Of a stretch of DNA of 64,000 bases, positions 26,617 through 26,686 are shown piece by piece (position 1 is the stretch's first letter; each line of letters opens with the position of its first letter). The DNA is from Escherichia phage Mizar: the sequence record PV714129.1; one strand, given 5' to 3'. The notes beneath the pieces are model-generated. The model saw only the letters and a list, made by a program, of their open reading frames with translations. It searched no databases and had not been told where the DNA came from. The position numbers and the translations under genes were made by a program.

Positions 26617-26657
26617 TTTATTCTCCAGATGTTTAAGTTGTTTGTTGGTACAGGTCT

Positions 26658-26686
26658 ATAATAACATAACCTGTACCAAAGTAAAC
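26658..26686 (-). promoter_or_regulatory. Early promoter for ORF 26251-26616
   Basis: Minus strand GTTTAC, 17 nt, TATTAT; inverted repeat GGTACAGG/CCTGTACC at 26648-26677. Confidence 0.45.

Follow-up and report, generated by a model that had tools for sequence, protein, structure and literature searches.

The 64,000-nt stretch of DNA analyzed here (the window; PV714129.1, Escherichia phage Mizar) comes from an RB69-like T4-type phage, and its early promoters with embedded inverted repeats belong to a class of elements already published as PeSL ("promoter-early stem-loop") cassettes. [quoted passage not shown] Judging from sequence comparison, the upstream mRNA most likely relies on the hairpin as its 3' end structure in places too tight for a dedicated one. 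Given that the PeSL picture was published in 2010 and 2014, the present analysis contributes further instances, not a new principle.

Early promoters of the window

A scan for the -35 element G-T[T/A]TAC and the -10 element TAnnnT separated by a spacer of 17-19 nt identified 18 intergenic early promoters in the window, all on the minus strand and each followed by a Shine-Dalgarno sequence and ATG, in line with the dozen or more promoters of this architecture mentioned in the initial annotation. The same promoters were retrieved by an independent consensus scan; many contain TG ahead of the -10 element, and they agree with the published T4/PST consensus TTTACW-N17-TAYWAT. The distance from the -10 element to the ATG is 24-42 nt. 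The genes served are those for gp30.7, gp30.8, FRD2, DUF5417 and DUF7320 proteins as well as four ORFs without a Pfam family (Table 1). The promoters share several properties with the PeSL: sigma-70-type hexamers spaced by 17 +/- 1 nt, preceded by AT-rich DNA; occupancy of the intergenic gap, with a stop-to--35 distance of -1 to 12 nt in 11 of the 18; location in plastic regions beside small genes that are non-essential or orphan; and a stem-loop of variable position, with stems of 6-14 bp in 9-10 of the 18 promoter cores and a stem-loop upstream of the -35 element instead in some of the others.

All six inverted repeats cited in the initial annotation are present in the sequence, and several of the stems are longer than described there. 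Their coordinates hold to within a few bases, except that GATAGGA/TCCTATC is located at 41923-41929 and 41944-41950, not at 41918-41945. No Rfam match was obtained at the gathering score anywhere in the window. Promoter or stem-loop features are absent from the T4 GenBank records, promoter hairpins are not discussed in the Hinton 2010 review, and a literature search found no T4 RNA 3'-end map.

Table 1. Early promoters, embedded stems and associated features in the Mizar window
Feature	Span	Strand	Promoter hexamers	Stem arms	Fold (kcal/mol)	z	Remarks
Early promoter of gp30.7 homolog (focal element)	26645..26686	-	-35 GTTTAC 26681-26686; -10 TATTAT 26658-26663	TTGGTACAGGT 26669-26679 / ACCTGTACCAA 26645-26655	-18.2	-3.98	11-bp hairpin; arms bracket -10
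Early promoter of gp30.8 homolog	27102..27130	-					No core hairpin; preceded by canonical terminator 27167-27186
Early promoter of DUF7320 protein (cd.2-region)	30544..30583	-		30561-30573 / 30544-30556	-16.9	-4.6	13 bp with G.U; ortholog of T4 Pe133295
Early promoter of 99-aa ORF	32674..32709	-	-10 TATAAT 32680-32685	AGGAGCA 32689-32695 / TGCTCCT 32674-32680	-12.2	-2.7	
Early promoter of alc	34086..34115	-		AACACC 34103-34108 / GGTGTT 34091-34096	-7.3		Spacer-only hairpin
Early promoter of rnlA	35269..35298	-		GCCACAAG 35284-35291 / TTGTGGTA 35273-35280	-8.3	-1.8	Spacer-only hairpin
Early promoter of frd.1 (DUF5417)	41500..41537	-	-35 GTATAC 41532-41537; -10 TACTAT 41508-41513	41517-41530 / 41500-41513	-19.1	-4.93	14 bp (two G.U), 10 bp perfect; 3' arm includes -10 hexamer
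Early promoter of FRD2-family paralog	41923..41961	-	-35 GTATAC 41956-41961; -10 TATAGT 41932-41937	GATAGGA 41944-41950 / TCCTATC 41923-41929	-10.4	-2.9	
Early promoter downstream of gene 32	42377..42405	-				-1.1	No core hairpin
Early promoter of rnh	45673..45702	-				-0.4	No core hairpin; no co-directional gene immediately upstream
Duplicated ~86-nt promoter cassette	58736..59142	-					Copies 59057-59142 and 58736-58821 flank 71-aa ORF
Early promoter of motA	58784..58812	-			-1.1 (core MFE)		No core hairpin; second copy of duplicated cassette
Inserted 71-aa ORF	58850-59065	-					Missing from 97%-identical relatives and RB69
Early promoter copy upstream of inserted 71-aa ORF	59105..59133	-		ACACGT 59124-59129 / ACGTGT 59111-59116		-1.65	
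Early promoter of ndd.1 (66 aa)	61664..61703	-	-10 TATAGT 61674-61679	61682-61693 / 61664-61675	-17.2	-4.5	12-bp stem
Early promoter of 87-aa ORFan (RB69ORF270c homolog)	62178..62215	-	-10 TATAGT 62186-62191	62194-62203 / 62178-62187	-13.2	-2.7	

Enrichment of inverted repeats

The recurrence of inverted repeats in the promoters, pointed out in the initial annotation, clearly exceeds chance under three null models (within-segment shuffles, column permutation among promoters and random genomic windows; 2000 replicates). For the 18 window promoters, the mean length of the best perfect stem is 6.0 bp compared with 4.5 +/- 0.2 bp in the null, and there are 6 stems of at least 7 bp where 0.6-0.8 are expected; neither value was matched in any of the 2000 replicates, and the number of stems of at least 6 bp was reached in one. 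The mean RNA minimum free energy (MFE) of the window promoters is -9.35 kcal/mol, against -4.4 to -5.6 under the nulls. Promoters of relatives were gathered using gp32 and gp52 as anchors with wide flanks; IMG/VR scans with small single proteins recovered close relatives only (1 locus for frd.2 and 14 for gp30.7). In 96 dereplicated promoters of relatives, the sense MFE is -6.26 compared with -3.97 +/- 0.19 in the null.

The stems had been described as either flanking the -10 element or lying in the spacer, and these two positions fare differently. Hairpins bracketing the -10 element account for the excess (family-wide, 19 stems of at least 6 bp vs 3.5 +/- 1.8 expected, a number not reached in any of 300 replicates), whereas spacer-only repeats are marginal (6 vs 2.0 +/- 1.4 expected, family-wide, with an unshifted mean). 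The rnlA promoter hairpin, of the latter type, is individually weak, and this promoter abuts the upstream stop codon. The spacer repeat ACACGT/ACGTGT (59111-59129) is probably not a selected hairpin: it is individually non-significant, the RB69 copy of the promoter lacks the repeat, and the promoter is located behind a canonical terminator (59161-59178).

Dependence on the upstream stop codon

In the window and among the 96 promoters of relatives, strong core hairpins are found almost only where the -35 element abuts the stop codon of an upstream co-directional gene, as in the focal element, where the upstream stop codon TAA occupies 26691-26693. In the window, stop-abutting promoters have a mean MFE of -11.9 kcal/mol compared with -4.6 for those that are spaced or preceded by a terminator (p = 0.003); the family-wide values are -9.4 and -3.5 to -3.9, respectively (p about 7e-7). 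Core hairpins are down to the null level in promoters that follow a canonical UUCG terminator or have spare intergenic space ahead of them. For example, the canonical terminator GGGAGAC-TTCG-GTCTCCC-TTTT (42437-42454) stands ahead of the hairpin-free promoter found downstream of gene 32. The exceptions are the abutting promoters at 25600 and 19774, which have weak stems only.

Pairing, strand and covariation

According to the position profile of the arms, the peak for the 5' arm is in the spacer, and the 3' arm extends from the last base of the -10 element to about +4. Stem mispairs in the family promoters include 13 G.T and 3 A.C, compared with 3.4 and 8.4, respectively, expected from composition, a count that rests on 16 events in promoters that are not fully independent phylogenetically. 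This preponderance of G.T over A.C, against composition, identifies the gene-sense strand as the strand under selection. The sense-minus-antisense MFE difference is -0.24 compared with +0.48 +/- 0.22 in a composition-preserving null. The direct paired comparison of sense and antisense MFE is non-significant alone (p = 0.67), and the strand asymmetry is visible solely against the composition null and in the G.T/A.C count.

Covariation of the stems among relatives, which the initial annotation had proposed as a check, was indeed observed. The orthologs of the frd.1 promoter contain at least five unrelated stem sequences, every one of them paired, and the cognate arms fold with an MFE of -16.8 compared with -9.9 for chimeras. 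Pairing in these orthologs was scored in per-sequence registers with the chimeras as control; a MAFFT-based pair count on a fixed structure is unusable because the orthologs differ in register (loops of 3, 4 and about 9 nt). Comparison of the window with RB69 reveals two double changes from A-U to G-C and several changes to G.U. In RB69, the stem of the FRD2-paralog promoter shows an A-U to G-C replacement and a repaired mismatch, resulting in a 12-bp stem; the ndd.1 promoter stem has a compensatory A-U to G-C change and one change to G.U; and an A to G change in the stem of the 99-aa ORF promoter produces a G.U pair. All differences between T4 Pe133295 and its ortholog in the window (30582) are wobble-compatible. 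In the T4-like and JS98-like orthologs of the gene for the 87-aa ORFan, there is a spacer hairpin of a different sequence instead. The density of substitutions between the window and RB69 is 7/97 in the arms, which is not clearly below that at other non-hexamer positions (18/186).

At the focal site, the 8-bp stem core is unchanged in 11 distinct orthologs except for one G.U change, with variable loop and flanks, and the homology of many relatives breaks at about 26686, at this promoter. A T/A difference beside the stem (26685) was considered as a compensatory change and rejected: it represents the loss of a ninth pair, so the focal site provides no informative covariation.

Taken across sites, the stem sequence is free to differ from gene to gene while pairing is kept on the gene-sense strand. 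A single-stranded-DNA role is conceivable instead, because the non-template DNA strand has the sequence of the RNA.

These patterns bear on two other readings of the repeats. The initial annotation had left room for promoter-level regulation. In such a scheme, a dimeric protein would bind the repeats as its operators, or extrusion of the repeats as cruciforms would adjust the strength or timing of the promoter. The repeats do lie exactly over the -10 element and the spacer, where a bound protein or an altered structure would affect initiation, and palindromic terminator stems of bacteria can double as factor binding sites. Nevertheless, this alternative found no support and is very unlikely: neither different sites nor orthologs have related stem sequences, which implies that there is no common operator; the loop length and register shift between orthologs; the asymmetry in favor of G.T over A.C is unexpected for duplex recognition or symmetric cruciforms; and the distance to the upstream stop codon, on which the hairpins depend, is irrelevant to an operator. 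Under the other reading, the repeats would be neutral quasi-palindromes that arise by intrastrand template switching or cassette recombination, with functionless pairing. Recombination in T4-type phages is intense, the cassettes are recombination junctions, and the reported inversion of the Pe133295 inter-arm loop fits such an origin. This scenario is highly improbable, however, in that template switching yields perfect Watson-Crick repeats with no preference for G.T over A.C, gives no reason for the limitation of the repeats to stop-abutting promoters, and would not maintain pairing through many independent stems at one orthologous site.

Tails, leaders and the fate of read-through RNA

The sequences that follow the stems are rich in A (46-65%) and contain 1.6 T per 8 nt on average. 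The in-promoter hairpins lack the combination of a GC-rich stem and a directly adjoining U-tract that defines intrinsic terminators. A terminator scan of the sense strand called none of the in-promoter hairpins and detected the canonical UUCG terminators nearby. The original PeSL proposal was that such stem-loops are true terminators or attenuators for polymerase arriving from upstream, which insulate the small early genes transcriptionally. Promoter-coupled terminators are known in bacteria, the context rule has the hairpin replacing canonical terminators, and an RB49 PeSL stem-loop cut downstream lacZ expression about as much as rrnB T1 (Arbiol et al. 2010, PMC2839356). This lacZ reporter result cannot tell termination from RNA decay, and the sole published functional test of terminator activity was performed with a G-rich RB49 stem, not one of the T-even/RB69 type (Arbiol et al. 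2010, PMC2839356). Considering also the absence of the U-tract, the negative scan, the AT-rich stems that are often just 7-10 bp long, and the extensive read-through of early transcripts into downstream genes that T4 biology requires, termination appears unlikely to be the principal function, although it is a more plausible alternative than promoter-level regulation or a neutral origin.

Because the expected start site is downstream of the 5' arm, this arm is missing from RNA initiated at the promoter, and the hairpin is confined to read-through RNA. This restriction supports the 3'-hairpin reading and argues against an operator. Transcripts initiated at the promoter would start within the 3' arm or past it and accordingly have an unstructured leader. 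Read-through RNA might alternatively be subject to translational control, by which its hairpin masks the ribosome-binding site and restricts translation to promoter-initiated RNA. That principle is established for T4 (genes e, soc and I-TevI), and in the alc-promoter orthologs of other phages, T4 included, the spacer pairs instead with a 3' arm containing the Shine-Dalgarno sequence (CCTCGTTTGTT...AACAAACGAGG; CCTCATTTCGTT...AACGAAATGAGG), with compensatory changes. The 3' arms in the window end 15-25 nt upstream of the Shine-Dalgarno sequence and do not include it, hence masking does not explain the window elements and is a highly improbable reading of them.

Two further mechanisms were considered and rejected. 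A roadblock model, in which a promoter-bound polymerase halts the incoming one and the hairpin releases it, fails on geometry: stalling would take place upstream of about -55, at a point where the incoming polymerase has yet to transcribe the hairpin. Coupling to RegB as a general mechanism applies to 3 of the 18 leaders: the window contains three strong RegB consensus sites, all in early leaders, two of which are located 18 nt past the two strongest hairpins.

Proposed function

The preferred reading, that the hairpin is the 3' structure of the upstream cistron, was already the simplest one in the initial annotation, which suggested that a compact intergenic region carries the 3' hairpin of the gene before it together with the promoter of the gene after it; the context rule, the G.T bias, the covariation and the position of the 5' arm all point to it. 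A polymerase that started further upstream would transcribe through the promoter, and the RNA would fold just past the upstream stop codon. The hairpin would then be a barrier to 3'-5' exonucleases after cleavage by RegB or RNase E in the A-rich leader or the Shine-Dalgarno sequence, and possibly also a weak attenuator. It would thereby do the job of the separate UUCG terminator that is used where there is room.

A stricter compaction rule can be put forward tentatively, at somewhat less than even odds: the hairpins would be selected only where the -35 element contacts the stop codon and would be purely RNA-level 3' barriers without a U-tract, leaving a protected upstream 3' end and an unstructured downstream leader. 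If true, this rule would settle the function of the PeSL stem-loops as cistron-specific mRNA stability rather than termination and would explain the freedom of the stem sequence to vary. The context rule also offers a way to test termination against protection of RNA 3' ends as the role of the stem-loops.

More generally, the elements would exemplify the packing of signals in T4-type phages, with the same few dozen bases comprising a very strong promoter, the end structure of the previous message and a transferable junction through which phages can exchange small genes. For annotation, inverted repeats are to be expected in T4-like early promoters, where they are very unlikely to be operators and mark likely recombination junctions.

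Cassettes and gene shuffling

The cassettes flank indels and replacements between close relatives, as the PeSL do. The clearest case is the duplicated cassette around the 71-aa ORF: the relatives L123 and L097 have one cassette that matches both window copies, in RB69 no ORF separates motA from gene 52, and the locus can be recognized as a PeSL-type indel. In the frd.2 region, the window contains an extra FRD2 paralog with its promoter compared with RB69. The cassettes could be crossover points for the gain, loss and duplication of small early genes because about 90 bp per cassette are similar from copy to copy. A T4 record notes an earlier report in which the loop flanked by the Pe133295 arms was inverted.

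Comparison with known systems

The PeSL cassettes (Arbiol et al. 2010, Genome Biol Evol 2:140, PMC2839356; Comeau et al. 2014, Genome Biol Evol 6:1611, PMC4122927) and the window elements alike combine a sigma-70-like early promoter, an AT-rich upstream region, a stem-loop, and a Shine-Dalgarno sequence with ATG in one short intergenic cassette. The initial annotation did not identify the elements as members of this class. [quoted passage not shown] Both kinds of cassettes have small genes of unknown function as neighbors and border sites where close relatives differ by indels or duplications. The embedded PeSL stems documented for RB49/phi1 are of the G-run/C-run type, whereas the RB69-type stems of the window are AT-rich, gene-specific and bracket the -10 element. 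[quoted passage not shown] 2014, PMC4122927). Promoter activity, terminator/attenuator activity and mini-circle formation have been shown experimentally, the first two in reporter assays, for selected RB49/phi1 elements only (PMC2839356), and the role of PeSL in modular shuffling is already in the literature (PMC2839356, PMC4122927). The stop-codon-abutment rule and the G.U/A.C strand bias were not found in either paper (PMC2839356, PMC4122927).

In bacterial promoter-coupled intrinsic terminators (Fletcher et al. 2026 preprint, doi 10.64898/2026.08.19.745784), one intergenic stretch is likewise both the upstream 3' signal and the next promoter, an arrangement that shortens the intergenic region as it does in the window. 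The bacterial elements have a stem over the -35 element, a T-tract just upstream of the -10 element and RNA 3' ends about 10 bp upstream of the start. The window elements differ from these in that the arms bracket the -10 element (5' arm in the spacer, 3' arm downstream) and there is no T-tract. In T4 genes e, soc and I-TevI (Uzan and Miller 2010, PMC3014915), a promoter lies inside the DNA for the 5' strand of an RNA hairpin, as in the window, and long transcripts fold whereas internally started ones do not. There, the internal promoter is late and the 3' strand masks the ribosome-binding site; in the window, the promoter is early and the Shine-Dalgarno sequence is free. The alc-promoter orthologs of T4 and other phages resemble this masking class, to which the window elements do not belong.

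Canonical T4-type terminators occupy the same place on the map as the in-promoter hairpins, between the stop codon of an early gene and the next promoter, but have a GC-rich stem, a UUCG tetraloop and a U-tract, all three of which are missing from the hairpins in the window. REP elements, such as those of the E. coli malE-malF operon, are intercistronic or 3' stabilizer hairpins that block 3'-5' exonucleases. These stabilizers are not superimposed on a promoter, and stabilization has been demonstrated experimentally for them whereas it is deduced for the window hairpins. The two types of elements are alike in being stem-loops without a U-tract just past a cistron in polycistronic RNA, with a proposed function as barriers to decay.

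Early promoters of the window and their hairpins

The window comes from a myovirus of the T4 type, RB69 group (Mosigvirus). Over a 4-kb piece it shares 97-98% identity with Escherichia phages LH01, CAU_ECP01, ST0 and HX01, and the gene 32/59 block shows 92% identity to RB69 vs ~75% to the T4-proper phages. From ORF order and size compared with the T4 map, and from alt onward also from the T4 and RB69 annotations, we take the window to span about gene 23, the baseplate genes, alt, 30, rIII, 31, cd, pseT, alc, rnlA, nrdAB, td, frd, 32, 59, the tail-fibre genes 34-38, asiA, motA, 52, ndd and rIIB, with the minus strand encoding the early genes. 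A scan for T[T/A]TAC, 16-19 nt and TAnnnT, followed by inspection, yielded 18 minus-strand intergenic promoters, each with a preceding G and with a Shine-Dalgarno sequence and ATG 24-42 nt past the -10 box; an independent consensus scan recovered the same sites, many of which have TG before the -10 box. The six inverted repeats named in the initial annotation are all present, five where they had been placed and GATAGGA/TCCTATC ~5 nt away (arms at 41923-41929 and 41944-41950).

The longest perfect stems in the 45-nt promoter cores (8, 8, 6, 5, 5, 3, 4, 7, 10, 6, 6, 7, 5, 3, 11, 4, 5 and 5 bp) average 6.0 bp vs 4.5 +/- 0.2 bp in the null sets; six are at least 7 bp long (0.6-0.8 expected), and the mean RNA MFE is -9.35 vs -4.4 to -5.6 kcal/mol. 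Neither the observed mean length nor the number of stems of at least 7 bp was reached in any of 2000 null replicates; the number of at least 6 bp was reached in 1 in 2000. The recurrence noted in the initial annotation thus exceeds chance under three nulls, namely shuffled spacer and downstream segments, alignment columns permuted between promoters, and windows drawn at random from the genome. Individually, the promoters (designated by window positions near the -35 box) 26685, 41536, 61702 and 30582 have fold z-scores of -4 to -5, and 41960, 32708 and 62214 of about -2.7 to -2.9; the folds of the control promoters 42404 and 45701 carry no signal. There are no Rfam matches in the whole window.

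The hairpins were described originally as either flanking the -10 box or located within the spacer. In a dereplicated set of 79 promoters from the window and its relatives, all with an 18-nt spacer, clear enrichment is confined to the bracketing layout, with the 5' arm in the spacer and the 3' arm after the -10 box (19 stems of at least 6 bp vs 3.5 +/- 1.8 expected, reached in 0 of 300 replicates); hairpins fully within the spacer are not clearly in excess (6 vs 2.0 +/- 1.4, mean not shifted). Accordingly, the ACACGT/ACGTGT repeat (z = -1.65) may well be due to chance. The profile of the 5' arm has its maximum at promoter positions 9-19, that of the 3' arm from the last -10 base to ~+4. Given that transcription from sigma-70 promoters usually starts ~7 nt past the -10 box, RNA initiated at the promoter would begin inside the hairpin, lack the 5' arm and stay unstructured, so that only RNA derived from upstream would fold.

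Coordinates of features associated with the early promoters
Feature	Position	Strand	Remarks
Early-type promoter and 89-aa ORF	3812-4141	minus	Promoter at 4112-4141; ORF without Pfam family
RegB consensus	26616-26626	minus	
RegB consensus	27059-27069	minus	
RegB consensus	41471-41481	minus	
Canonical terminator	27167-27186	minus	Next promoter lacks core hairpin
Canonical terminator	35717-35730	minus	
Canonical terminator	42437-42454	minus	Next promoter lacks core hairpin
Canonical terminator	59161-59178	minus	Next promoter lacks core hairpin
Canonical terminator	63029-63044	minus	
FRD2-family paralog, 120 aa	41537-41899	minus	Own early promoter
FRD2-family paralog, 128 aa	41961-42347	minus	Own early promoter
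Antisense hairpin	41923-41950	plus	Followed by TTTTT
Antisense hairpin (ACACGT/ACGTGT)	59111-59129	plus	
Antisense hairpin	62179-62202	plus	
Promoter cassette copy	58736-58821	minus	
71-aa ORF	58850-59065	minus	No Pfam family
Promoter cassette copy	59057-59142	minus	

Conservation of pairing and strand bias

The comparison set included 134 IMG/VR loci anchored on gp30.7, gp32 and gp52, together with T4 and RB69. Across 96 dereplicated early promoters, the sense-strand MFE is -6.26 vs -3.97 +/- 0.19 in column-permuted controls. Among orthologous promoters the hairpin is kept and the stem sequence is not. Upstream of frd.1, at least five unrelated stems, all paired, with loops of 3, 4 or ~9 nt, are found among the orthologs (e.g., ACAGGGTAAT/ATTACCCTGT, AGGGCTAT/ATAGCCCT, GGTGTAGAGG/CTTCTACACC and GTTGATAGGGTA/TACCCTATCAAC), and cognate halves fold at -16.8 kcal/mol vs -9.9 +/- 4.3 for chimeras. 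Between the window and RB69, A-U is replaced by G-C on both sides in two pairs (promoters 41960 and 61702), one mismatch becomes C-G, and several single changes give G.U. The covariation sought among relatives is seen at these two promoters and the frd.1 orthologs. Promoter 30582 and T4 Pe133295 show wobble-compatible differences only. At promoter 26685, that of the gp30.7 homolog, 11 distinct orthologs share the same 8-bp core apart from one change to G.U; the loop and flanks vary, and there is no informative compensatory change. That the repeats are quasi-palindromes arising as a neutral by-product is very unlikely.

According to the T4 GenBank record, 14 nt of Pe133295 (T4 133300-133313; 3901-3914 in locus L135) were once reported as the inverted complement; these nucleotides (TTGTGATATTATAG) are the exact loop, -10 box included, between the arms GGTAGAG and CTCTACC. 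The earlier report could reflect an artefact of cloning or sequencing, or else a genuine variant in which the hairpin had mediated an inversion.

Stem mispairs include 13 G.T vs 3 A.C (3.4 vs 8.4 in a composition-preserving null), and the sense-minus-antisense MFE is -0.24 vs +0.48 +/- 0.22 in the null; the raw paired comparison of the two strands is not significant on its own. Together, these data moderately support selection for pairing on the gene-sense strand, either as RNA or, less likely, as the non-template DNA strand. A DNA-level operator or cruciform, the promoter-level regulation considered in the initial annotation, appears improbable: stem sequences are unrelated, the strand bias goes against it, and an operator model does not predict the dependence on gene context described below.

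In the alc-promoter orthologs (T4, L001 ~16277-16345; L031, L036 and L046), the Shine-Dalgarno sequence lies in a 3' arm that pairs with the spacer, with compensatory changes between phages, so that the ribosome-binding site would be masked in read-through RNA. T4 hairpins with internal promoters are known to mask ribosome-binding sites (Uzan and Miller 2010, PMC3014915). Such masking looks real for alc in T4 and other phages; as the role of the hairpins in the window it is highly improbable.

Dependence on the upstream stop codon

The most informative result of the analysis is a context rule. Core MFE averages -11.9 for the 11 window promoters with the -35 box -1 to 12 nt from an upstream co-directional stop codon. 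The remaining seven are at the null level, -4.6 (p = 0.003): three immediately follow a canonical UUCG terminator, one follows another stem-loop and three have no close upstream co-directional gene. Family-wide, the means are -9.4 for 43 abutting promoters vs -3.5 and -3.9 for 18 and 34 spaced promoters with and without an upstream terminator-like hairpin, respectively (Mann-Whitney p about 7e-7). The in-promoter hairpin thus appears where a separate 3' structure has no room. This abutment is predicted by, and supports, the simplest reading in the initial annotation, a 3' hairpin of the upstream gene combined with the promoter of the next one.

The canonical terminators (Table), a near-identical family at early transcription unit ends, consist of GGGAGAC or GGGAGC, a UUCG tetraloop and a U-tract (GGGAGAC-UUCG-GTCTCCC-UUUU near hairpin promoters). 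A terminator scan found nearby canonical terminators but did not call the in-promoter hairpins on the sense strand, where the sequence after the 3' arm is A-rich (46-65% A, mean 1.6 T per 8 nt). With the U-tract missing, true transcription termination at these hairpins is unlikely. On the plus strand, T-rich sequence, which complements the A-rich stretch around the -35 box, follows some of the promoter hairpins (Table); these score as terminator-like and might stop antisense transcription.

We favor, with a probability of about 0.65, a promoter-early stem-loop (PeSL)-type element whose hairpin provides the upstream cistron with its 3' structure in read-through RNA. If the hairpin forms in vivo, its most likely role would be to block exonucleases once the leader has been cut, possibly along with weak attenuation; 3' ends at the stems and an effect on RNA stability would be expected. 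RegB cuts GGAGRAYARAA in early leaders, between GG and AGRAYARAA (Uzan and Miller 2010, PMC3014915). Only three strong matches occur in the 64 kb, all on the minus strand and all Shine-Dalgarno sequences of early genes (gp30.7, frd.1 and gp30.8 homologs). Each of the two strongest hairpins has one of these matches 18 nt downstream, and the consensus is missing from the remaining 15 leaders, so the link to RegB is partial.

Promoter cassettes at indels and junctions

Located between gene 52 and motA, the 58736-59142 segment is a textbook example of an indel flanked by PeSLs. A single ~86-nt cassette in two relatives 97% identical to the window (L123 and L097) matches both copies; the 71-aa ORF between them is absent from these relatives and from RB69, which have one cassette. 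Within 41472-42405, the window has two tandem FRD2-family paralogs, whereas RB69 has one frd.2, with a GATAGGG-hairpin promoter directly upstream of frd.1 (L136 ~19166-19870); what is extra between the GATAGGG-type promoter and frd.1 is an FRD2 paralog and promoter 41536. In most relatives, DNA homology ends exactly at ~26686, the upstream edge of the gp30.7 promoter. Identity to JS98-like phages is 93-96% for the gp30.7 homolog and only ~65% for gp32 (93% and 66% on one JS98-like contig, loci L015 and L032), indicating that the gp30.7 gene moved between lineages with the junction at the promoter.

In T4, a near-identical promoter cassette is present at two loci ~13 kb apart, upstream of alc and of alt.-3 (L001 ~3034-3100). 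The 3812-4141 unit, located between plus-strand genes that, by ORF size and position, appear to be late genes 23 and 24, looks like an early cassette inserted within the late region.

Relation to known elements

Promoter hairpins are not discussed in a review of T4 transcription (Hinton 2010), and bacterial promoter-coupled intrinsic terminators differ in geometry from the elements in the window (Fletcher et al. 2026 preprint, doi 10.64898/2026.08.19.745784). The element class is already known. PeSLs were described in RB49/phi1 as a strong sigma-70-like promoter, AT-rich in its upstream region, combined with a stem-loop that, in five subclasses, lies between the boxes, overlaps either box, or is upstream or downstream; reporter evidence indicates promoter and terminator/attenuator activity, and a role in modular shuffling via recombination and mini-circles is also described (Arbiol et al. 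2010, PMC2839356). PeSLs were extended to T4/PST and KVP40/nt-1, with the T4-type consensus TTTACW-N17-TAYWAT and AGNA...TCNT-like stems; the PST stems, according to the figure legend, are just upstream of the promoter (Comeau et al. 2014, PMC4122927). The stop-codon-abutment rule and the strand bias are what the present analysis adds to this class, and with them the choice between a terminator and an RNA 3' barrier becomes directly testable.
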